A stretch of 64,000 nucleotides of DNA from an uncultured bacterium (lineage in GTDB: Bacteria > Verrucomicrobiota > Verrucomicrobiia > Verrucomicrobiales > DEV007), in the NCBI GenBank assembly GCA_963977015.1, contig CAXBMO010000002.1:192001-256000 (forward strand). Reading direction: 5' to 3'. Below the pieces are notes generated by a model. It was not told the DNA's origin, searched no databases, and worked only from the letters and a program-made list of their open reading frames with translations. This document shows, one piece after another, positions 2,467-31,015 of this stretch. The translations under genes and the position numbers were made by a program. Numbering within the stretch: position 1 is the stretch's first letter; each line of letters begins with the position of its first letter.

Positions 2467-4074
2467 TCAGCGGTATTTCCGCAGCGGATCTTCGTTCCAC
2501 TCCGGCAATCGGGAAACTTCATCGACCACGCCCGGACTGAGCGGGAGCCCAAGTGTCTGGTAATGGGGCGCAAGGTTCTTCCCAACGGCTTGGGAAAAGC
2601 GCCGAACCCATTCATCGTTGCGGCGCTGTTTCGAAGCGGGCATCTCCCAGACCTCAAGGCGATTGTATTCGTCAAAAATGCGTTGGAAAGGCTTCCAGCC
2701 AAATGCGTCCTGAATGCAGAGATAGGAATCAAGCGCAGTCCAACTGTTCCAATTTTTGGCGAAGTCAGGAACTCCGCTGAAATAGGCATTGCGGAGTTGC
2801 TGGCGGCGGAGGGGATGAAAATTCGGGTGGAGTTGGTCGCGAGGAATCTGCAGGAGTTCATCGGCAAGGTAGGCTCCCCAGAGATTGCAGGTCGCCTCGG
2901 TCGTTCCCGGCAGATGCCAGAAGTTGTGTTGATGGTTGTGACCGAGTTCGTGAAAAAAGCGGTAGCTGCCGCGTTTGCGCAGTTCTGTCGCGTTCACAGC
3001 CAGGGCGGCATCAGGTCCGGCATGAGCAGCAAACGGGTAGCCGGAATGCGCGGATCCGGAGAGGAGTTGGCGATCAAAGACAATGCGTTCCGCGCGATAG
3101 TTGGAGCGGTCGATCTTGACCAGTTCGGCGGACGTATCGACGATCTGATTCCACAGGGTCATGACTTCGTCCGGGTTTTCCAGATTGCGGACATAGTTGC
3201 TGGGTAAGGCGAGAATCATGCGATCGGAAACGAGTTCCGCCCACGGAGCTGGAGCGTGGCGGAGCATCGTTTTCCATTCATCGAGAGTGGTTTGGCCATG
3301 GACGTAGAGCGGCGCAGCGACCGCGCCCGAGATGGTAACATCGAAACTTCCAAGTCTGGCATCTCGCGGAATCCCAATGGTAATGAGACCGCCCAGCCCG
3401 TTGGCAACACGGCGTTCCGGTTGGCTCATGACAAATGACCGGAGAAGACGTGGGTAGCGCCACCACTCCGCTTTGTCCGTGATGTTTCCCCAGTAGGCGC
3501 CGATGCTGACCGTGACGCCCTTTCGGACGAACTCAGGAGGAACAGAAACGGTGACAACTTTGCCCGGCGGCGCATAAAGGCCGGTGGAACGTTTTTCCCC
3601 GATGAACCAATGTCCGCTAACGCGCCCGCCAAGCCAACCCCGGTAGTTTCCGTCGATCTTGATGGTTCGAGTGATTCGCGGAGCCTCTTCGGGAACCAAA
3701 CCGGGATAATCCCCGGCCGCGTCGATGGGCCAGAGTTGTTCCGGTGGAAGAATCTGGTTGAAGTGATCCTCAAGGCGGATGATGGCGGCCGGCAAAATCT
3801 GCTCCGCCGGACGAATGGGAAACTCCTTGGTCGGAATGATGGGCCCCAGTTCGCCCCGAAGCTCGTGAAAGGCGGTCAGAAAGTCGGCGAGTTCTCGACC
3901 GTTGAGCGTTGCGCCCCTGGAGAGCGCGGAAACGCGTTGAGGTTCGGCGCGGTTCGCCGGATCAAGAAGTTCGCGTGCTGCTACAAGCGGTTCAGAGGCC
4001 TCCGCCCCGGAATGCCCCATCACGACGCCGACGATCAAGCAAACCGGAACTGTAATCCACGCACCAATAAACAC
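2467..4074 (-). CDS. M60-like metallopeptidase (short paralog)
   Basis: STGLYAPPG, APWAEL and HELGHNHQ...TEATCN (HExxH plus downstream E); hydrophobic N-terminus. Confidence 0.85.
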   Translation of the reverse strand: MFIGAWITVPVCLIVGVVMGHSGAEASEPLVAARELLDPANRAEPQRVSALSRGATLNGRELADFLTAFHELRGELGPIIPTKEFPIRPAEQILPAAIIRLEDHFNQILPPEQLWPIDAAGDYPGLVPEEAPRITRTIKIDGNYRGWLGGRVSGHWFIGEKRSTGLYAPPGKVVTVSVPPEFVRKGVTVSIGAYWGNITDKAEWWRYPRLLRSFVMSQPERRVANGLGGLITIGIPRDARLGSFDVTISGAVAAPLYVHGQTTLDEWKTMLRHAPAPWAELVSDRMILALPSNYVRNLENPDEVMTLWNQIVDTSAELVKIDRSNYRAERIVFDRQLLSGSAHSGYPFAAHAGPDAALAVNATELRKRGSYRFFHELGHNHQHNFWHLPGTTEATCNLWGAYLADELLQIPRDQLHPNFHPLRRQQLRNAYFSGVPDFAKNWNSWTALDSYLCIQDAFGWKPFQRIFDEYNRLEVWEMPASKQRRNDEWVRRFSQAVGKNLAPHYQTLGLPLSPGVVDEVSRLPEWNEDPLRKYR

Positions 4075-6315
4075 CTACTTGATGTAGCGCTTTACCGGAT
4101 GGTCATCCCACGCCGGCAACTGGCTGGTTTTCTGGCTTACGAACTCGCTCATCGGAAGGTTCCAGGCGGCATAGTAGGGAGCCAGGTTCGCGTTGCAGGC
4201 TTTGGAAAGGCGGATGACCCATTGGTCATTCTTCTCCTGCTGCGACTTGGGCCATTCATCTTGCGGAAGGTTGTTGTATTCATCGAACACGGCTTTGAAG
4301 GGCTCCCAGCCAAACTCCTCTTGAATCAACAGGTAGCAGTCGAGCGCGGTCCACACGGCCCATTCGTCCTGAAAATTTCGACCGCCATTGAAGTAGGCAT
4401 TCCGCAATTGCTGGCGCTTGAGGGGATTGACACCGCCATGCGTTTTGTCGCGATGTTTCCCAACATACTCTTCGAAGATGTAGACGCTCCAGAGATTGCA
4501 GGTGGTTTCCCCGGTGCCGGGAAGAGACCAGAGATTGTGTTGATGATTGTGCCCATATTCGTGAAAGAAGCCCCAATTCCCGTCACGCTTGAGCGATGAG
4601 GCATCGACAGCTTGTTCCGCGCCTTTGCCGAGATGAGCCGCGACCGGGTAACCACTGTGCATGGAACCCGCAGCGGTCTGCCGGTCAAAAACGATGCGTT
4701 CGGCCCGGTAGTCGTCGCGGTCGACAACGACCAGTTCAGCCGCAGTATCGATATAGGCGTTCCAGACTTCCATGACTTCATCCGGGTTGTTGAGATTGCG
4801 AATATATTCGCAGGGAAGCGCGATAATCATCCGTTCGCTCGCCAGTTCAGCCCAGGGGGCCGGATGCTTGCGAAGCGTGGACTTCCAGTCGCTCACGGAG
4901 GTTTGACCATGAACGTAAAGCGGCGCCTCGATGGCTCCTTCGATCTGGATTTCCTGTTCCCCAAACTCGGCACCGCGGGGGACACGAATGGTGATGAGCC
5001 CACCCAAGCCATTGGCCGCCGTGGTTTCTCTGCTTTTGATCTCCACACTGCGCTGAAGCCGAGGCCAGCGTTGCCATTTGTCCCGATTGTTCAAACCACC
5101 TCGATACGCACCGATCACAATCTCGAATCCGCTCCCGGCGATACGCCCGGGAACGGTGACCCGAACAGTCTCGCCGGGAACCGCATAAAGACCGGTTGGC
5201 CGCATTTCCTTCGCATTGTTGGCTCCAGCCCCCCGTCCGCTGAGCCAGCCCTTGTAGTTGCAATCAACAGCCAGGGTTCGCGTGACGCGGGGAGCGTCCT
5301 CCGGAACTGCGCCAGGGTAATCCTGCGCGGCAGCAATCGGGCGAACTTTCTCAGCGGGAAGCGTTTGGTTCAATTGATCGATCAGTTCGATGACCGTGTC
5401 GATCAGTTCGTTCTGGCCCGGAATGACGGGATTCTCTTTCGTCGGAACGATGGGTCCGATCGCGTTGTCGAGTTCAGCCAACGCTTCAAGAAAGCCATCC
5501 AGCTCCTCCCCTTTCAGCCGGTAGCCATTCTTGAGTTCCTTGATGAGCTGTGGCGTTGCGGATTTCCCACCATTCTGAGCCAGCTTTTTCGAAGCCGCGA
5601 TTGGGAGAGGAACTCCGGAGCTATCGACCGGCGGAGGACCAAATGCGATGGAATTGCGAACGCTGGCGTAGCCGCTGGATTGAAAGGTAATGCCTGCGAG
5701 GCTGCCGACCTGGTTTCCCGGAAACGTGGCAAAATCAGGAAATTTGTCCCCAAAAGGCCACGGCGTTGCCGCAATGATCACCCCGCTTCCTTTGAGGGCG
5801 AAGCGACGCACACTCTCAACTCCTTTTTCGGACAGGGCCTCGTGGCCAATGAAGCAGTAAACATCAACCTGGTTGATCAGGTCTTCGGGCTCGACTTCCC
5901 TCACCGTCATTCCTAGTTCGGTCAAAACCGGCTCCAATTGGGAAAGGCTGGGCGAAAGCCCGACACTTGGTCTCGTCGATCTTCCAGCCCAGCGAATCGT
6001 GTTCGCGACGAGCAATTTTACGCCGGCCTGATCCATCAACGCTCCGGGCTTGAGAAACGAACCATGAGCGAAAGCGGCGACCCGTCCCTTCGTTCCGGTA
6101 AGCCCGATAGCGCCAAAAACCTTGCCGTCTTCATTCGTGAGAAGTTCCCGAGAACTGGCCGCCTGGAGCTCGAGAACTCCCGGAATGCTCTTGCCGAGCG
6201 AAAACTCGTCAACCTTTGAGGTGATCAGATCAATATCTTTCCGGCTTGGACTCGCCGCGAATGTTGAAACCACCAGCAAGAAGGAGACGACACCAACATG
6301 GATTGTGGGCTTCAT
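4075..6315 (-). CDS. Secreted M60-like metallopeptidase with N-terminal extension
   Basis: Signal peptide; PTGLYAVPG, APWAEL and HEYGHNHQ...GETTCN motifs; its stop codon abuts the start of the paralog. Confidence 0.88.
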   Translation of the reverse strand: MKPTIHVGVVSFLLVVSTFAASPSRKDIDLITSKVDEFSLGKSIPGVLELQAASSRELLTNEDGKVFGAIGLTGTKGRVAAFAHGSFLKPGALMDQAGVKLLVANTIRWAGRSTRPSVGLSPSLSQLEPVLTELGMTVREVEPEDLINQVDVYCFIGHEALSEKGVESVRRFALKGSGVIIAATPWPFGDKFPDFATFPGNQVGSLAGITFQSSGYASVRNSIAFGPPPVDSSGVPLPIAASKKLAQNGGKSATPQLIKELKNGYRLKGEELDGFLEALAELDNAIGPIVPTKENPVIPGQNELIDTVIELIDQLNQTLPAEKVRPIAAAQDYPGAVPEDAPRVTRTLAVDCNYKGWLSGRGAGANNAKEMRPTGLYAVPGETVRVTVPGRIAGSGFEIVIGAYRGGLNNRDKWQRWPRLQRSVEIKSRETTAANGLGGLITIRVPRGAEFGEQEIQIEGAIEAPLYVHGQTSVSDWKSTLRKHPAPWAELASERMIIALPCEYIRNLNNPDEVMEVWNAYIDTAAELVVVDRDDYRAERIVFDRQTAAGSMHSGYPVAAHLGKGAEQAVDASSLKRDGNWGFFHEYGHNHQHNLWSLPGTGETTCNLWSVYIFEEYVGKHRDKTHGGVNPLKRQQLRNAYFNGGRNFQDEWAVWTALDCYLLIQEEFGWEPFKAVFDEYNNLPQDEWPKSQQEKNDQWVIRLSKACNANLAPYYAAWNLPMSEFVSQKTSQLPAWDDHPVKRYIK

Positions 6316-24126: not shown

Positions 24127-25764
24127 CTACAGCGCCATCAAGCCGGTGATCTTCCCATCCGCGTCAATGTCGATCCCTTCGGCCGCGGGAACTCTGGGTA
24201 ACGCCGGCATGCGAAGAATATCTCCCGTCAGTGCGACGAGAAACCCGGCGCCATTGGCAATTTCAAAATCGCGAACCGTGATGTCGAAATTTCGGGGACG
24301 CCCCAGAACGGATGGATCATCGGAAATGGAGTTCTGAGTTTTGGCCATGCAAATGGGAAGCTTGTCGAGCCCGAGCTTCTCAAATCGATTCAACTTTTTC
24401 CGGGCAGCAGGAGCCAAAACAACCCCGTTTGCTCCATAAATCTCGCGAGCAATCGTTTCGATCTTCTCCGGAACGCTGGCGCTCACCGGATAGAGAGGTT
24501 CCAAAGCGGGACTCTCCTGCCTCGCGGCTTCAACCACGATATCTGCCAGATCAGCACTCCCCGGACCTCCATCTGCAAATCCCTTGGAAACCGCACAAGG
24601 AATCGATCGGGAATCGCAATAACGGCGAACCCGTTCAAACTCTTCGTCCGTGTCGGCCGGGAACGCATTGATCGCCACCACAAGTGGACGCTTGAACTTG
24701 GCCGCCGCTTCCAGATGAGCCGCGAGATTCTCGAGGCCGCGATCAACGGCATCGGGATCGGAATTGGTTAAATCGGCCAGCGCGACACCGCCATGCATCT
24801 TGAGCGCACGAATCGTTGCAACGAGAACGACTGCATCCGGCGAAATTCCTGCCGAGCGGCATTTGATGTCGAAAAACTTTTCCCCGCCAAGATCAAAGGC
24901 AAATCCCGCTTCGGTGATCGTGTAATCCGATCCACCAAGCGCCGTCCGCGTCGCAAGCACCGAGTTGCAACCATGGGCAATGTTCGCGAAGGGCCCACCG
25001 TGGACAACCGCCGGAACTCCTTCCAAGGATTGCACCAAATTCGGACGCAGCGCATCGTGCAAAATGGCAAGCAGGGCCCCGGTGATCCTGAGGCTGGAAG
25101 CAAACACGGGGTTCCACTCCGCATCGTAGCCGAGCAAAATTCGGTTGAGCCGTTCACGCAAATCTTCCATCGACTCGGCCAGACAAAAAATCGCCATGAC
25201 TTCACTGGCCGCAGTGATGTCGAACCCGCATTCCCGAGGAACACCATGTCCTCCAAGCCCGGGGTTGATTGCGCGCAACGAACGATCATTCGCGTCCAGC
25301 ACCCGTTTCCAAAGCACTCGTCGAGGATCCAGTGTGGTGGATCGAAAGTGGAGTTGATTGTCCAGCGTGGAAGCAATCAGATTATGGGCGGTAGTGATGG
25401 CGTGAAAATCGCCGTTGAAGTGGAGATTGATCTTCTCCGACGGCGTCAATGAAGCCAAACCGCCTCCAGTTGCCCCACCTTTCCGTCCAAAAACAGGCCC
25501 CATCGAAGGTTCACGCAGAGCCAACGCAACATTGTGACCGCGGTGACGCATTCCCTGAGCCAACGCAATCGAAGTCGTGGTTTTCCCTTCTCCCGCAGGT
25601 GTCGGCGTAATCGCACTGACGAGGATGAGCTTTCCGCGGGCGGGACGCGAAGTCACGAAATCCAGGTCGATTTTCGCACGATCCTTGCCATAGCATTCCA
25701 AATGCTCTGCGGGAATCTCTAAGTCGCTTGCGACATCCTGGATCTCTCGAATCACCATGAGCAT
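24127..25764 (-). CDS. fhs: Formate--tetrahydrofolate ligase (start 25764 or 25758)
   Basis: TPTPAGEGKTT, INLHFNGDFHAIT, HGGPFANIAHG and ICMAKT. Confidence 0.97.
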   Translation of the reverse strand: MLMVIREIQDVASDLEIPAEHLECYGKDRAKIDLDFVTSRPARGKLILVSAITPTPAGEGKTTTSIALAQGMRHRGHNVALALREPSMGPVFGRKGGATGGGLASLTPSEKINLHFNGDFHAITTAHNLIASTLDNQLHFRSTTLDPRRVLWKRVLDANDRSLRAINPGLGGHGVPRECGFDITAASEVMAIFCLAESMEDLRERLNRILLGYDAEWNPVFASSLRITGALLAILHDALRPNLVQSLEGVPAVVHGGPFANIAHGCNSVLATRTALGGSDYTITEAGFAFDLGGEKFFDIKCRSAGISPDAVVLVATIRALKMHGGVALADLTNSDPDAVDRGLENLAAHLEAAAKFKRPLVVAINAFPADTDEEFERVRRYCDSRSIPCAVSKGFADGGPGSADLADIVVEAARQESPALEPLYPVSASVPEKIETIAREIYGANGVVLAPAARKKLNRFEKLGLDKLPICMAKTQNSISDDPSVLGRPRNFDITVRDFEIANGAGFLVALTGDILRMPALPRVPAAEGIDIDADGKITGLMAL

Positions 25765-25908: not shown

Positions 25909-27159
25909 ATGGAACGCCGCGTTGTCATCACCGGCCTTGGAGTCGTTACGTCTCTTGGCTGGGATCTTACCACCTTTTGGAATCATTTAGTCACCGGCCG
26001 AAGTGGGATTCGTCGCGTTCAGGGATTCGAGACTTCGGGTTTGCGCTGCCAAATCGGAGCGGAACTTCTCGATTTTGATGCCAGCCCCTATTTCGCCAAT
26101 TCTCGCGATGCGAAACGCGCGGATCGCTTCATTCAATATTCCGTTGCGGCTTCCAAAATGGCCGTCGCCGAATCGGGGCTCGACCTCGAAAATTTGGCAG
26201 ACCCCGGCAAAGCTGGAGTCTTTCTCGGGACCGGCGTTGGCGGTTTGAGGACCACGGAAATCAGCCAACACGTTCTGGATGAAAAGGGGCCCGGCAAAGT
26301 TTCCGCCTTTGCGATTCCCATGATGATTGGAAATGCGGCGGGCGGTCTGGTCGCGATGGATTTTGGAATCACCGGTCCCAATTTCTGTGTCACGTCAGCC
26401 TGTGCAACGGGGTGCCATGCGATGGGCGAAGCGTGGAAAACGATCAAATTCGGCGATGCCGACGTAATGATTGCTGGTGGGTCCGAGTCCGCCGTGACGC
26501 GACTGGCTTTTGCGGGTTTCGGGAATATGCGGGCTCTCAGCCGGCGGAACGACGAACCGGAACGCGCCTCACGCCCCTTCGATTTGGACCGTGATGGCTT
26601 TGTCATGGGCGAAGGAGCCGGCGTCGTGATCCTCGAAGAATTGGAAAGCGCGAAGAAACGTGGCGCGACCATTTTTGCCGAATTGGTCGGCTACGGAACG
26701 TCGGCCGATGCCTTTCACCCGACCATGCCACATCCCGAGGGACGTGGAGCCAGCCAATGCATGGAACGAGCCCTCGCTCGCGCAAAGCTGAATCCAAACC
26801 AAGTCGAATACATCAACGCCCACGGCACCTCGACCCCTCACGGCGACATTGCCGAAACCATGGCCATCAAACAAACCTTTGGCGACTACGCCCAAAATGG
26901 TCTCGCGGTCAGTTCCACCAAATCAATGACGGGCCATCTCCTCGGAGCAGCTGGCGGAGTCGAACTGGCAACCTGCGTGCTCGCGATCAAAAACCAGGTC
27001 GCACCGCCAACGATCAATCTGGAAACTCCCGACCCCAAATGCGACTTGGACTACGTGCCCAACGAAGCCAGGGAAATGCCGATCACTTCCGCATTGAACA
27101 ACTCGTTTGGATTCGGAGGAACCAACGCGACGCTGATCGTCTCAAAATTCCTCGGCTAA
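25909..27159 (+). CDS. fabF: Beta-ketoacyl-ACP synthase II
   Basis: RRVVITGLG, SACATG, NAHGTST, KSMTGHLLGAAG and NSFGFGG. Confidence 0.97.
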   Translation: MERRVVITGLGVVTSLGWDLTTFWNHLVTGRSGIRRVQGFETSGLRCQIGAELLDFDASPYFANSRDAKRADRFIQYSVAASKMAVAESGLDLENLADPGKAGVFLGTGVGGLRTTEISQHVLDEKGPGKVSAFAIPMMIGNAAGGLVAMDFGITGPNFCVTSACATGCHAMGEAWKTIKFGDADVMIAGGSESAVTRLAFAGFGNMRALSRRNDEPERASRPFDLDRDGFVMGEGAGVVILEELESAKKRGATIFAELVGYGTSADAFHPTMPHPEGRGASQCMERALARAKLNPNQVEYINAHGTSTPHGDIAETMAIKQTFGDYAQNGLAVSSTKSMTGHLLGAAGGVELATCVLAIKNQVAPPTINLETPDPKCDLDYVPNEAREMPITSALNNSFGFGGTNATLIVSKFLG

Positions 27160-27277
27160 GGGGAACTGGGACCTGGGAAATTGAAAACTGCGATCTCAAG
27201 TAGTTGAAGTGAACCTGTAGCCAACGGCTATGACGAGGATCAGGAAAGAGTGCGGCTAGGCCAAAAGAAGAGGATCA

Positions 27278-27322
27278 GCGGTATCTTTGGCCACCTGCAT
27301 CGTTCGTGATCGGTCTCAGAGC
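27278..27322. repeat. Left arm of a ~92-bp palindromic element split by the cassette
   Basis: TTTGGC, CCTGCA, CGTT, GTGA and CAGAGC blocks pair in order with blocks in 28141-28187. Confidence 0.8.
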
Positions 27323-27375
27323 GTCTTCGCTGTGCCGTCCGCGATCAGCGGATCGGAACCAGCGTTTTGTTCTGA
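27316..27375 (-). mobile_element. attC site (60 bp)
   Basis: Minus strand: R'' TCAGAAC, 5 nt, L'' GCTGGTTC, 20-nt hairpin, L' GCACAGC, 6 nt, R' G|CTCTGA. Two extrahelical bases; begins about 22 nt after the stop codon. Confidence 0.85.
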
Positions 27376-28139
27376 CTTCTTGTGTTCTACCATGGCGTTT
27401 ATCGATACTTTGAAACGATCTCCGTGTCCCCAATAAAACAATGCTTTAGCGTTCTCATAGACCGAGCTACGCGCTCTCCATCGTCCAGGCGACCACAATC
27501 TTCCGTCATGAATTCCTCGAGTTTCGGCGCAATTGAAGGCAGCGCACCCACAGATGTGAGATTTCGGCATCGGGCCAGCTCAAGCTGTTTCAACTTGGGC
27601 ATCGAGGAAAGCCCATCAAGCCTGTGAGGATTTGCCCAACAGACCATCATCTTCTGGACCGACGGAGGAACCAACAATCGCTCAAAGGTTGCCTTCTTCG
27701 GGTTGAAATGCCAAACGTGGTAGCGCTTCACGTTTGTCAGGGAATCGATTCCGATGTCCCTCTTGTTGAAGTGAATGATCAATTCCTCAAGATCAGGGAG
27801 CTTTGAAAAGTCGATACCGGGCCTCTTGGGGAACACTCCAAAGAACTTCAGCTTTGCCACGGAGTAGAGTCCATCGATATCCCTAACCTTGACGTCGTTG
27901 AACCACATCCGCTCCACAAAGGGAATTTGCCTAAGGAAATCCAACGTATCCTCCTCAAACCCCAGATAGGGGGCCCCAAAAATGCTCTTCACCCTTCGGC
28001 GTTGGATCTCCGCAACACATTCGTCGATTCTCGAAGATTCGATCCCAATTGAGTCAGCGCCTGCTGGACCCCATCCCGTCAGGAAGCCATTCTCCCGGTC
28101 GCAAACCATTCTTCTTTGTTGAATTCTTCTCGGTCAGAA
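27322..28139 (-). mobile_element. Solitary integron gene cassette (818 bp)
   Basis: Starts G|TTCTGAC (28140-28133), the exact complement of GTCAGAAC (27376-27369). About 30 nt of leader, a single ORF, then the attC. Confidence 0.82.
27399..28109 (-). CDS. Leucine-rich-repeat-like protein (cassette cargo)
   Basis: LxxLPxLxxL-type units: FSKLPDLEELII, LSSMPKLKQLELARCRNLTSV and APKLEEFMTEDCGRL. Confidence 0.75.
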   Translation of the reverse strand: MVCDRENGFLTGWGPAGADSIGIESSRIDECVAEIQRRRVKSIFGAPYLGFEEDTLDFLRQIPFVERMWFNDVKVRDIDGLYSVAKLKFFGVFPKRPGIDFSKLPDLEELIIHFNKRDIGIDSLTNVKRYHVWHFNPKKATFERLLVPPSVQKMMVCWANPHRLDGLSSMPKLKQLELARCRNLTSVGALPSIAPKLEEFMTEDCGRLDDGERVARSMRTLKHCFIGDTEIVSKYR

Positions 28140-28140
28140 C

Positions 28141-28187
28141 TTGCTCCGCTCCCTCACAACGCCTTGCAGGAAGCCAAATCTCTTCGC
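28141..28187. repeat. Right arm of the split palindromic element
   Basis: GCTCCG, TCAC, AACG, TGCAGG and GCCAAA blocks are complementary to 27278-27322. Confidence 0.8.
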
Positions 28188-28217
28188 GGCATTGGCAACA
28201 CCTCCACTTCAAACGCT

Positions 28218-29159
28218 CTAACGCATTTTCTCGAAGCGATTCGTCAACAGCTCAACGCTGGACTTGTTGCCGGTTGCATCCAGCGCCTTGTCCGTGAGCT
28301 GCTGCTCGAGAGCGTTCTTTGTCGGACGTTCAACCTCGTAAAAGACGCCAAACTTGCCCGGCCAAGGTTCATCAGCCAACTTGAAAGCTTTGTTCTGATC
28401 GGTGATGTCATGGCGCTTCCAGTCATCTTCGCTGTCGTCCCACTTCTTCTCTTCGATCAACTCAAACTTCCCGTCTTTGCGAGGATTCGCCTCATCAAAG
28501 GAACCTTTGTAGAACACAACGCACTCGGAAAGGACCTCAACGACGCTAAAGCCGGGATGCTTGATCGCGCGCTCGAACATCTCCATCATGTGCTTCACTT
28601 GAGCAGCATGGGTGCGAGCCACAAAGGACGCGCCACTGGAAACCAGCTTCTTCATGGGGTTGATCGGTTGATCAACCGCGCCCGTTGGATCGGTTTTCGA
28701 CTTGAAACCAATCGGCGAAGTCGGGGAAGTCTGCTTCTTGGTCAATCCATAGACAAAGTTGTCCATGATGACGTAGGTCAGGTTGACGTTCTTCCGAGCG
28801 CAATGCTCAAGGTGATTCCCACCAATCGAAAATCCATCACCGTCCCCACCAAAAACGAACACGTTGAGATCCGGACGCGAAAGGCTAACGCCGGTCGCAA
28901 ACGGAAGAGCCCTGCCATGAATGAAGTGAACTCCGTGACCATTCACGAAATACGGAAACCGTGACGAGCACCCAATCCCGGCAATCGTCGCGATTTTCTC
29001 ATGGGGGATCTGGAGTTTCTCCACAATCTTGAAGAAGGAAGCAAGGACAGCGAAGTCGCCACAGCCCGGACACCAGGTTGGGTGATCCGCCGTTAAATCC
29101 TTTTTCGTCAACTTTGGAGCCTCGAACGGTGGAGCTTCTTTGATGTCGATGGTTGCCAT
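28218..29159 (-). CDS. korB: 2-oxoacid:ferredoxin oxidoreductase beta subunit
   Basis: PTWCPGCGD, GIGCSSR, GGDGD and DNFVYGLTKKQTSPT. Substrate specificity was not determined. Confidence 0.93.
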   Translation of the reverse strand: MATIDIKEAPPFEAPKLTKKDLTADHPTWCPGCGDFAVLASFFKIVEKLQIPHEKIATIAGIGCSSRFPYFVNGHGVHFIHGRALPFATGVSLSRPDLNVFVFGGDGDGFSIGGNHLEHCARKNVNLTYVIMDNFVYGLTKKQTSPTSPIGFKSKTDPTGAVDQPINPMKKLVSSGASFVARTHAAQVKHMMEMFERAIKHPGFSVVEVLSECVVFYKGSFDEANPRKDGKFELIEEKKWDDSEDDWKRHDITDQNKAFKLADEPWPGKFGVFYEVERPTKNALEQQLTDKALDATGNKSSVELLTNRFEKMR

Positions 29160-29185: not shown

Positions 29186-31015
29186 CTAAACTTCTTCGAT
29201 CGCCAGATACTCGTCAATCCCGTCGATGATCTCCCGAATCTTGAAGGTCAGGCCATCTGTCTTGCAGATGCTCTGAATCTTCGGATTGCAGAATCGCGAA
29301 CGCAACAACGTCGCCAACTGGCCCTGGCCGTAAAGGCCCTCGTCGTTCATCTCGACAACGAAAATGTGATTGAAGCGATCGAAAATATCACCGAGACCGG
29401 GAGCCATCGGATTCAGGTGCCGAAGGTGGACTGCACCGACTTTGTGATCATCCTTTCTCAAGCGATCAACCGCCTCGCGGACGGGACCGTAGGTCGATCC
29501 CCAACCGACCAACAGGACTTCACCATCGTTCACGCCGTAGACCTCAGGCGGAGACAGTTCCTTCTCCAAATCCCGCAATTTATTGCGGCGTCGAGCAACC
29601 ATTTGCACGTGCAGTTCGGGCTTCGCGGTGGGATGGCCCCACTCGTCATGCTCCAAACCGGTAACGACCGGGTATTTGCCACCGTCAATTCGCTTTCCTG
29701 GAGGCGCGTGCTTTGTCACTCCATCCAGCGGATACGGCTTGAATTCGTCCTCAATCGGCGTCAGATCCAAAACGGGATCAACCGTCAATTTCGCAATGTC
29801 GGGTTGCTCAAACGCTTCAATCCGGGATGCCAGAGCCTGGTCCGAAAGCACAATCACGGGAACGCTGTATTTTTTCGCAATCCGAGCGGCTTCCAGCGCG
29901 ATGTAGAAGCAATCCTCAACATCTTTCGGCGCCAAAACCACACGCGGAGTGTCGCCATGGCTGCCGTAGATCGCCTGCATCAAATCACTTTGCTCTACAC
30001 TGGTCGGAAGGCCGGTCGACGGACCGCCACGTTGCACGTTGATCACAATCAGAGGCAACTCAGCCATGGTTCCCCAACTCAAAGCTTCCATTTTGAGAGA
30101 GAGACCGGGGCCGGAACTTCCCGTGACGGCGAGGTGCCCGGAATAGGCGAATCCCAAAGCCATCGAAACTGCCGCCAACTCATCCTCGGCCTGAATAAAG
30201 GTTCCTCCATAACGAGGCAGCTCCACCCTCAACCCTTCCATGATGGAAGACCAGGGAGTAATTGGGTAACCGGCACCGTAGCGAACGCCAGCTGCGATCA
30301 GCCCTTGCGTTAGCGCCGTGTTACCGTCCGTTGCCACCCGATGTTCATCTTTCGAGTGGCCAACCTTCATGTCGAAGGCCAACTTGAGAACGTCGCCAAG
30401 CGGATAGGAAAAACCGGCATCGAAGGCCAATTCAGCGTTGCGAAGCACGGACTCATGCTTGGAACCAAACTGACGGCGAATGATCTCGAGCAACTTCGAG
30501 CGATCGAGATTGAAAATGCTGCAGATCAATCCCAGCGCGAACATGTTCTTGCCACGATCTTTGGCGGAACCTCCGATAGCCTCAACCGTCGCACTGGTAA
30601 GCGGAACGCCGACAAACGTGAACCGGGGGTCATTCTCCTTGGGCTCGACATGATCGGAATCGTAAAGACAGATGCCACCCTCACGAAGCGAATCGATGTG
30701 GTTGTCAAAGCTGTGCTGATAAAAGGCGACCAGGAAATCCGCGCGATCGCCGGAACTGAGCACTTCACCGGAAGCAAGGCGAACCTGGAAGATCGACGCG
30801 CCACCCGAAATCGTTGCCGGAATGGTCATGTAGGTCATGACATCGCGGTCGCTGCGACCGGCCAGTTTTGCGAGCATCCCGCCGATACTTTGAATCCCAT
30901 CCTGGGAATCGCCGGCAAAGCGGATTACTGCATCTTCAACTTGCTCGGTCTTGAGACCGGTGTTGCCCGCGACGATCTGCTTCGTCGGAGCTGGAGGGGT
31001 GGCGACATCGCTCAT
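29186..31015 (-). CDS. korA: 2-oxoacid:ferredoxin oxidoreductase alpha subunit
   Basis: IRFAGDSQDGIQ, GYPITP, QAEDELAA and QRGGPSTGLPT. Confidence 0.93.
   Translation of the reverse strand: MSDVATPPAPTKQIVAGNTGLKTEQVEDAVIRFAGDSQDGIQSIGGMLAKLAGRSDRDVMTYMTIPATISGGASIFQVRLASGEVLSSGDRADFLVAFYQHSFDNHIDSLREGGICLYDSDHVEPKENDPRFTFVGVPLTSATVEAIGGSAKDRGKNMFALGLICSIFNLDRSKLLEIIRRQFGSKHESVLRNAELAFDAGFSYPLGDVLKLAFDMKVGHSKDEHRVATDGNTALTQGLIAAGVRYGAGYPITPWSSIMEGLRVELPRYGGTFIQAEDELAAVSMALGFAYSGHLAVTGSSGPGLSLKMEALSWGTMAELPLIVINVQRGGPSTGLPTSVEQSDLMQAIYGSHGDTPRVVLAPKDVEDCFYIALEAARIAKKYSVPVIVLSDQALASRIEAFEQPDIAKLTVDPVLDLTPIEDEFKPYPLDGVTKHAPPGKRIDGGKYPVVTGLEHDEWGHPTAKPELHVQMVARRRNKLRDLEKELSPPEVYGVNDGEVLLVGWGSTYGPVREAVDRLRKDDHKVGAVHLRHLNPMAPGLGDIFDRFNHIFVVEMNDEGLYGQGQLATLLRSRFCNPKIQSICKTDGLTFKIREIIDGIDEYLAIEEV

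Follow-up and report, generated by a model that had tools for sequence, protein, structure and literature searches.

Single attC sites lacking an integron integrase (SALINs) have been defined and counted, with 3400 found in 2469 genomes (bioRxiv 10.1101/2022.09.11.507474). The same preprint reports that the integrases IntI1-3 insert attC-bearing circles throughout the Escherichia coli chromosome, at sites named attG that are used as duplex DNA, are cleaved on the bottom strand only and are compared there to dif-like core sites (bioRxiv 10.1101/2022.09.11.507474). The attG consensus given there is GWT, with cleavage in the middle of a short core and a CRGM motif at +6 to +9; GWT is a tendency reported for these three integrases and not a definition of SALIN or attG insertion. 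Here we describe a locus in a 64,000-nucleotide stretch of contig CAXBMO010000002.1, from an uncultured verrucomicrobial bacterium of the family DEV007 (assembly GCA_963977015.1; the whole stretch is referred to as the window). Positions 27323-28140 very probably represent one integron cassette, composed of a promoterless gene for a leucine-rich-repeat (LRR) protein and a 60-nt attC, which was inserted into the centre of a dispersed repeat as a SALIN of the attG type. This kind of insertion is already known, having been described in 2022-23, and the present case is a further, unusually clean natural example. What is unusual here is that the cassette entered a repeat hairpin at its apex, a target similar to the R box of the cassette, and that the crossover was at G/CT (the slash marks the crossover point).

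The locus shares with SALINs and attG insertions a content of one open reading frame (ORF) and one attC with no intI or other att site nearby, flanks that are contiguous in the empty state, a crossover after the G at the G/TT position of the attC, a cleavage point in the middle of a short symmetric target, and an expression that would depend on a host promoter. It differs from the attG sites reported in the preprint in that the target triplet is GCT and not GWT, CRGM is absent at +6 to +9, where the target reads AGAC, and the target is the apex of a long hairpin repeat resembling the R box of the cassette; moreover, it is a natural case, whereas attG insertion was described in an E. coli assay. 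A second comparison is with the sedentary chromosomal integrons found in this bacterial family, the arrays of which lie beside intI (L050, L051 and L053). The attC described here has in common with theirs the AACAA motif, two bulges on the 5′ arm, ACG/TT, the GAAC/GTTC flavour of the R boxes and the order and polarity of ORF and attC. By contrast, it is 60 nt long and not 124-131 nt, with a 5-nt loop in place of the central 70 model positions, and the cassette is not arrayed and has no adjacent attI or intI. In lacking an adjacent integrase, the site also resembles the attC clusters that have no integron integrase (CALINs) as IntegronFinder 2.0 presents them (PMC9024848), but it is a single site, flanked on either side by one half of the same repeat, which therefore identifies it as an insertion and not as the remnant of a decayed array. 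In the 64-kb window we found neither an intI or attI adjacent to the site nor two or more attCs within a few kilobases, the features of a complete or decayed chromosomal integron. The IS1111-attC group of insertion sequences, the group IIC-attC introns and the insertion sequences that target repetitive extragenic palindromes are further mobile DNAs with a defined insertion point in a folded palindromic repeat. The locus differs from these in that the incoming DNA is a cassette without a mobility enzyme, and in that the role of target falls to the structured repeat and not to the attC.

The cassette lies on the minus strand, and its elements can be read directly. The G at 28140 is followed by TTCTGAC (28139-28133) and a 30-nt leader that extends to the ATG at 28109. 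The 236-aa ORF (27399-28109) terminates with a TAA at 27401-27399 and is followed by a 22-nt spacer, GTCAGAAC (27376-27369), AAAAC, GCTGGTTC, a 20-nt centre, GCACAGC, GAAGAC and the G at 27322, such that 818 bp lie between the two crossover Gs. An initial annotation of the window, made from the letters alone, had placed each of these elements, and each is found where it had been placed. The cassette comprises one ORF, oriented towards the attC, and short non-coding ends, and the list of ORFs in the insert contains no recombinase gene. Its 5′ end, (G)TTCTGAC at 28133-28140, complements GTCAGAAC at 27369-27376 exactly and, in a circle, would restore the R′ box: if the insert ends TTCTGAC and G are joined, they yield GTTCTGAC, to which GTCAGAAC is perfectly complementary. 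The perfect 8-bp R′/R″ complement that had been noted for the circularized form holds only with the ends joined. In the resident linear copy, the bases after G 27322 are CTCTGAG, and the last box is GCTCTGA, not GTTCTGA. The resident R′ box reads GCT because the target supplied the CT; the box is a hybrid in which the G at 27322 comes from the cassette and CTCTGA from the target.

The exact ends of the insert were obtained from uninterrupted copies of the sequence into which it was placed. In a short-word BLAST search of the korB-fabF spacer against the genome of the same bacterium (G000; 6.9 Mb, 51 contigs), window positions 27202-27322 matched C10:175050-175170 at 87%, and 28142-28201 matched C10:175172-175231 at 92%; the flanks are likewise contiguous on C5, C9, C29 and C15, which gives at least five uninterrupted copies. 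When the window was aligned to five of these copies, it differed by one block, 27323-28140, the limits of which are ambiguous by 1 nt (27322-28139 is equally possible, with a G at both ends). With this ambiguity, the breakpoints coincide with the two crossover Gs that the initial annotation had proposed. The left half of the repeat occupies 27196-27322 on the plus strand, ends at the insertion point and covers positions 5-134 of an nhmmer profile of the repeat; the right half, at 28141-28217 on the same strand, continues up to profile position 208, and its terminal inverted repeat abuts the stop codon of korB. The placement of the cassette between the housekeeping genes korB and fabF in the initial annotation was correct, but the site is not plain intergenic DNA: it is the palindromic centre of a repeat of approximately 205 nt. 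This repeat unit has terminal inverted repeats of approximately 30 nt that start with TAGAGCA, is non-coding and resembles a miniature inverted-repeat transposable element (for example, C10:175042-175248). Its profile yielded 38 nhmmer matches in the genome at E ≤ 1e-3, 9 of them full-length; about 20 copies are partial, and no match for the repeat was found in Rfam. Among 30 relatives searched, the repeat occurred in two, G003 (8 matches) and G010 (11 matches). Folded as single-stranded DNA, the unit gives one long hairpin (-44.4 kcal/mol, z -4.8); the insertion point is at its apex, between the arms CAGAGC and GCTCTG that are split by two variable bases. A search for further cassette junctions at the centre of other half-copies of the repeat yielded none that was convincing. 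Elsewhere in the genome, an 89-nt near-perfect palindrome (approximately -45 kcal/mol) is present twice, 1.2 kb apart and in opposite orientation (C41:22882-22970 and 24129-24217), and these two copies may be the ends of another element.

The same alignment can be read in reverse, with the window as the ancestral long form of the repeat, the short copies as its deletion derivatives and the hairpin behind the resident gene as a terminator-like structure. Short non-autonomous elements often arise by internal deletion of longer ones, and the folding z-score of the hairpin is unimpressive by itself. However, in the short copies the junction coincides exactly with a perfect 6+6 palindrome that forms the apex of a hairpin of -44 kcal/mol, which a deletion would not create. 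The ORF is single-copy, is not a transposase and has relatives that are cassette genes in other phyla; the hairpin is matched by an attC model built from other genomes, and no run of T follows it. We consider a deletion origin of the short copies barely tenable.

Comparison with relatives of the same genus provided the state of the korB-fabF interval without the cassette. In G003, the korB of which is 92% identical, the ends of fabF and korB lie approximately 75 nt apart, with neither the repeat nor the cassette between them. This empty interval, together with the five uninterrupted repeat copies that fix the insert as 27323-28140, bears out the insertion that had been proposed. The G003 spacer (L017:316-390) is almost wholly one near-perfect palindrome that overlaps the end of fabF and is probably a bidirectional terminator. 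G002 presents a third state of the interval, a 265-aa ORF (L016:1143-1940) whose product has a thioredoxin CGPC motif and is helical in its C-terminal part. This ORF begins 36 nt downstream of korB, and 6 nt separate its end from the fabF stop. In three further relatives (G001, G005 and G008), no fabF was found within approximately 6 kb downstream of korB. The interval is variable, and in the lineage of G000 it gained the repeat and the cassette, in either order. The cassette gene is single-copy in G000, and the cassette protein was not found in 40 relatives, three of them of the same genus.

The attC was examined both by folding and with a covariance model. A 65-nt segment folds on the minus strand with -14.2 kcal/mol (z -2.3; 3 of 200 shuffles were as good) and on the plus strand with z -3.25 (0 of 200 shuffles), whereas in a 101-nt context the z-scores are only -1.0 (minus) and -1.6 (plus). 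By a rough estimate, an 8-bp inverted repeat between flanks of approximately 100 and 230 nt is expected by chance in about one case in three. The hairpin fold taken alone is weak evidence for an attC. The candidate exceeds chance because it is matched by the covariance model at the exact site and because its breakpoints are given by the uninterrupted repeat copies. The model, R1, was built from 25 attCs located beside intI in G001 (same genus), G091 and G042, where arrays of 124-131-nt repeats with attC layout are found; the candidate was kept out of training. In the training alignment, read on the cassette coding strand, 15 of 16 stem pairs show compensatory changes, and all 25 sites have AACAA after the first box, a bulged G in column 16, a bulged A in column 24 and a terminal ACGTT. 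When R1 was run over the window without filters, the top match was 27316-27375 on the minus strand, with 26.2 bits and E 1.4e-4 (E-values of R1 are rough, owing to a shortened calibration). The match extends over model positions 1-125, with 5 nt standing in place of the central 70 positions. The second-best of 23 matches at E ≤ 10 reached 10.5 bits (E 0.48), such that the candidate is the sole match in the window below E 0.4 and no second attC at that threshold is found near it. The best score in a control genome (G041, from a genus with intI in 0 of 9 genomes) was 13.4 bits, and true attCs of foreign types, located beside homologues of the cassette gene, scored 17-27 bits.

The 60-nt site, with R″ TCAGAAC and a 5-nt apical loop, holds all the clade invariants: AACAA, the bulged G16, the bulged A24 and ACG. 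Both of its extra bases are on the 5′ arm of the stem on the coding strand and align with G16 and A24 of the training sites; unpaired extra bases on the L″ arm set the choice of strand. The initial annotation had noted one extra base in L″ and a second bulged base in the stem. That annotation had also stated that the core keeps AAC/GTT and has lost the RYYYAAC/GTTRRRY pattern. The former is correct, and the loss is real but normal for this clade, the boxes of which are mostly GCCGAAC/GTTCGGC. GCAGAAC or GTTCTGC occurs in several training sites, and the candidate boxes TCAGAAC and GTTCTGAC suit this flavour; one training site of the GCAGAAC/GTTCTGC type has the 11-nt stretch CAGAACAAAAC in common with the candidate. 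Rfam gave nothing relevant for the cassette region. These results identify 27316-27375 as an attC of the type used by this bacterial family.

The window had been found to contain no integrase, and the sole integron integrase gene of the genome lies on another contig (C1:216518-217420; TIGR02249, 291 bits versus a cut-off of 265). Its frame is intact and encodes 431 aa. Further tyrosine recombinase genes in the genome score below the integron-integrase cut-off. Across the family, an integron integrase is present in 50 of 81 genomes at E ≤ 1e-40 and above the TIGR02249 cut-off in 46 of 81. R1 gave at least 28 matches in G000 at E ≤ 10 and at least 26 below 0.01, on 16 contigs, counts that are lower bounds, 150 of 1753 first-look candidates having been scored. 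With one integrase on C1 and at least 26 further attCs, both an integron integrase and sibling sites are present in the genome. Four of the siblings are short, with 58-59 nt and 29.5-46.8 bits (C36:43316, C6:271830, C6:342018 and C35:30387); they fold like the candidate, into a stem that has bulged single bases in its 5′ arm and a loop of 3-5 nt at its apex, and are 36-57% identical to the candidate. The site at C6:342018 has the 11-nt apical stretch CGCTGATCGCG in common with the candidate. A blastn-short search of G000 with the hairpin returned no siblings, which were found by R1 instead. Thirteen of the matches below E 0.01 have no neighbour within 4 kb, which makes 14 solitary sites with the candidate. 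The pair of bases after the crossover G is AT in four of the attCs of this genome, CT in two (one being the candidate), GA in one and TT in most others.

Six R1 matches are clustered on C36 between 38209 and 44670, and several others lie at contig ends, where arrays may have been split by the assembly. Scans for AAC...GTT hairpins, requiring either complementary outer R boxes or a single-stem minimum-energy fold, were dropped, as they missed real arrays and also real attCs beside homologues, with 4 of 35 loci flagged; an apparent attC cluster that they placed downstream of the C1 intI was not confirmed by R1. Clusters of attCs were also observed in genomes of the family without an integron integrase at E ≤ 1e-40, namely, G020, G021, G004 and G011, with 32, 25, 6 and 5 R1 matches at E ≤ 10, respectively, including a tight cluster at C98:108888-116496 in G020.

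A conserved non-coding module that ends in CCTGCAAATCTGCAGGATAGCCCCA-G/TT (CCCCA-G/TT) was observed at seven loci of G000 (C6:19130-19414, C6:340569-340644, C19:19543-19829, C28:80755-80852, C30:31954-32026, C31:29436-29780 and C36:21718-21795). Its core is approximately 75 nt long, and up to approximately 290 nt are common to three copies. At six of the seven loci it directly precedes one or two cassettes with attCs of the R1 type; at the remaining one, C6:19130, there is no R1 match within several kilobases. The module contains TTGACA-like boxes and a short palindrome, and no integrase is nearby at any of the seven loci. Searches of the family's genomes located its core also in G001 (three copies) and G002 (one copy) but in none of the remaining 78, and none of 36 integrase loci that were fetched had the module next to intI. 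These features suggest that the copies are dispersed, orphan attI-like docking sites. The module is absent at the cassette in the window.

The cargo of the cassette is a stand-alone LRR solenoid protein of 236 aa (27399-28109, minus strand). LRR_4 is matched with 23.4 bits, under the Pfam cut-off of 27, and 8 of 16 family members match LRR_4. Fifteen homologues of 213-283 aa, with 38-45% identity, were all located on short contigs. The AlphaFold2 model of the protein has a pLDDT of 92.7, and its closest folds are generic LRR binders (internalins and SDS22; top match E 3e-5, TM 0.54); the protein is presumably a binding protein. A search for loci with the single protein as the query returned nothing, whereas an alignment of the family returned 21 genome loci together with 30 loci from metagenomes, the sequence of the window itself being one of the latter. 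The genome loci are mostly from Planctomycetota and Verrucomicrobiota, with single homologue loci in a Cyanobium metagenome-assembled genome (MAG), Geopseudomonas aromaticivorans, a Mycobacteriales MAG and an unclassified bacterial MAG, and two weak matches in clostridial MAGs. One locus (L058) has nine classical attCs of 76-77 nt, with the homologue (3944-4642) between numbers six and seven; 10 nt separate the end of the upstream attC from the start codon, and the stop of the homologue overlaps the next R″. Homologues likewise lie between attCs in L101 (the Geopseudomonas record, in which the gene is disrupted), L072 and L074, and in L076 the homologue is preceded, at a distance of 14 nt, by the end of an attC. 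This gene family occurs as integron cassettes. No attC was recognized next to the homologue in most of the other 50 loci, and tblastn with the G000 IntI found no integrase beside homologues in the 51 fetched loci. In three planctomycete loci (L086, L089 and L091), GTTATCCAC is present just before the start codon, with no recognized attC behind the gene; these 5′ stretches may be old cassette ends that have lost their attC.

The attC model, the integrase gene with its sibling attCs and the empty site all support the reading of the initial annotation, an IntI-type cassette inserted by an integrase acting in trans. Most likely, the cassette was present in circular form, with G 27322 linked to T 28139 and R′ GTTCTGAC paired with R″ GTCAGAAC. 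An integron integrase encoded elsewhere would have recombined this circle into the chromosome; the acting enzyme could be the C1 integrase or one that has since been lost. The partner would have been neither an attI nor an attC but the palindromic centre of the repeat, already located between korB and fabF, with the crossover after the G, at G/CT. On the strand that would be cut, the target arm TCAGAG/C is one base apart from the TCAGAA/C of the cassette R box, a likeness that may account for the use of this site.

Several observations weigh against an integrase-mediated insertion of this kind. The attC has 60 nt, half of the clade's usual 124-131 nt, and its 26 bits compare with 43-103 bits for long sites scored with R1. 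At the scale of the genome, this score is borderline (about E 0.02 by scaling), and the candidate was not among the matches listed in the whole-genome R1 search, with its 150 scored candidates out of 1753. No attC array lies beside the sole intI, and none of the R1 matches listed is on contig C1. The crossover triplet in the target is G/CT, whereas the consensus for IntI1-3 is GWT. In contigs from four metagenome runs, only the occupied state was seen, with no empty-site or circle joint at a depth of approximately 2-5. Finally, the first ~20 nt of the cassette resemble the adjoining repeat arm beyond the R box, which is not required by an integron crossover.

The last of these points leaves a small probability for a route that involves homology and no integron integrase. 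The 818 bp might have been integrated by another tyrosine recombinase with a shared core, or by homology-assisted illegitimate recombination after DNA uptake, with the ~20-nt likeness as an anchor. The two junctions form an imperfect direct repeat on the plus strand (TCGGTCTCAGAGC versus TCGGTCAGAAC), nhmmer carries the repeat profile (positions 105-134) into the end of the insert, and the genome contains the other tyrosine recombinase genes mentioned above. An unrelated mechanism, however, would not predict junctions that fall exactly on the G of the attC R′ box and on the TT that completes R′; the insert carries no recombinase gene, and it is a complete cassette of the kind moved by integron integrases. 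We judge integration without an integron integrase to be highly improbable.

A further account retains the integron-type crossover but moves it to another place: the cassette would have entered a copy of the repeat elsewhere, and the composite of approximately 1.02 kb would have reached the korB-fabF interval through the transposase of the repeat or through homologous recombination or gene conversion. Both terminal inverted repeats bracket the cassette, and the repeat is multi-copy and common to G003 and G010, so it has been mobile. Moreover, both the repeat and the cassette are missing from this interval in the closest relative, G003, which indicates that they came after the split, in either order. 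The genome was not found to contain the cassette or the composite a second time, though, nor was an autonomous partner element found among the nhmmer matches of the repeat, and the left terminal repeat of the window copy has diverged. Arrival as a composite is improbable in our view, and direct insertion of the cassette into a repeat already resident between the two genes remains the favoured reading.

The cassette is situated 77 nt behind korB, in the same orientation. The korB-type gene for the beta subunit of a 2-oxoacid:ferredoxin oxidoreductase (28218-29159, minus strand; Pfam TPP_enzyme_C, 105.6 bits) lies upstream of the cassette ORF and is preceded by a korA-type gene for the alpha subunit (29186-31015, minus strand; POR_N, 178 bits; POR, 100 bits), the first gene of a presumed korAB transcript. 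On the attC side, the neighbour is a gene for a fabF-type beta-ketoacyl-ACP synthase (25909-27159, plus strand; ketoacyl-synt, 188 bits; Ketoacyl-synt_C, 138 bits). A consensus scan, which is of limited value in this phylum, found no sigma-70-like promoter in 27100-28400. The sole terminator-like site of the scan, 28362-28347, is inside korB upstream of its stop, with none between the korB stop and the cassette ORF, and the attC hairpin is not followed by a run of T. Judged from this arrangement, the cassette gene, if expressed, would be transcribed by read-through from korAB; no RNA run is listed among the sequencing runs that contain the locus. The metagenome contigs, from four runs of one study, cover the locus without differences; the 28140/28141 junction is bridged by a contig in three runs, and the 27322/27323 junction by one contig (X3), with at least 31 nt on each side. 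At their low depth, these contigs speak neither for nor against present-day mobility of the cassette.

The nature of the target allows a more specific proposal, which we regard as speculative and rather unlikely, that for the integrase the folded apex of the dispersed hairpin repeat took the place of a partner attC, with CAGAGC/GCTCTG mimicking the CAGAAC/GTTCTG duplex of an R box. If this were true, cassettes in this lineage would insert preferentially at hairpin repeats. A cassette within a repeat that keeps both terminal inverted repeats would then be a passenger that the transposase of the repeat could move, which would constitute a second, integrase-independent route of cassette spread.

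SALINs have been catalogued by software, and their origin at non-att sites has been shown in E. coli; natural empty sites that are exact to the base link the catalogue to the mechanism. The present case does so in an environmental bacterium of an integron-rich family, with an attC of half the usual length, a crossover outside GWT and a target that mimics an R box. The LRR protein family that it carries is uncharacterized and travels as cassettes in several phyla, which makes it a defined target for functional work; integron cassettes are reported to carry defence functions frequently. A single genome here combines one integrase gene, no array beside it and more than two dozen attCs, many of them solitary, and integron cassettes may in general supply this group with accessory genes throughout the chromosome.

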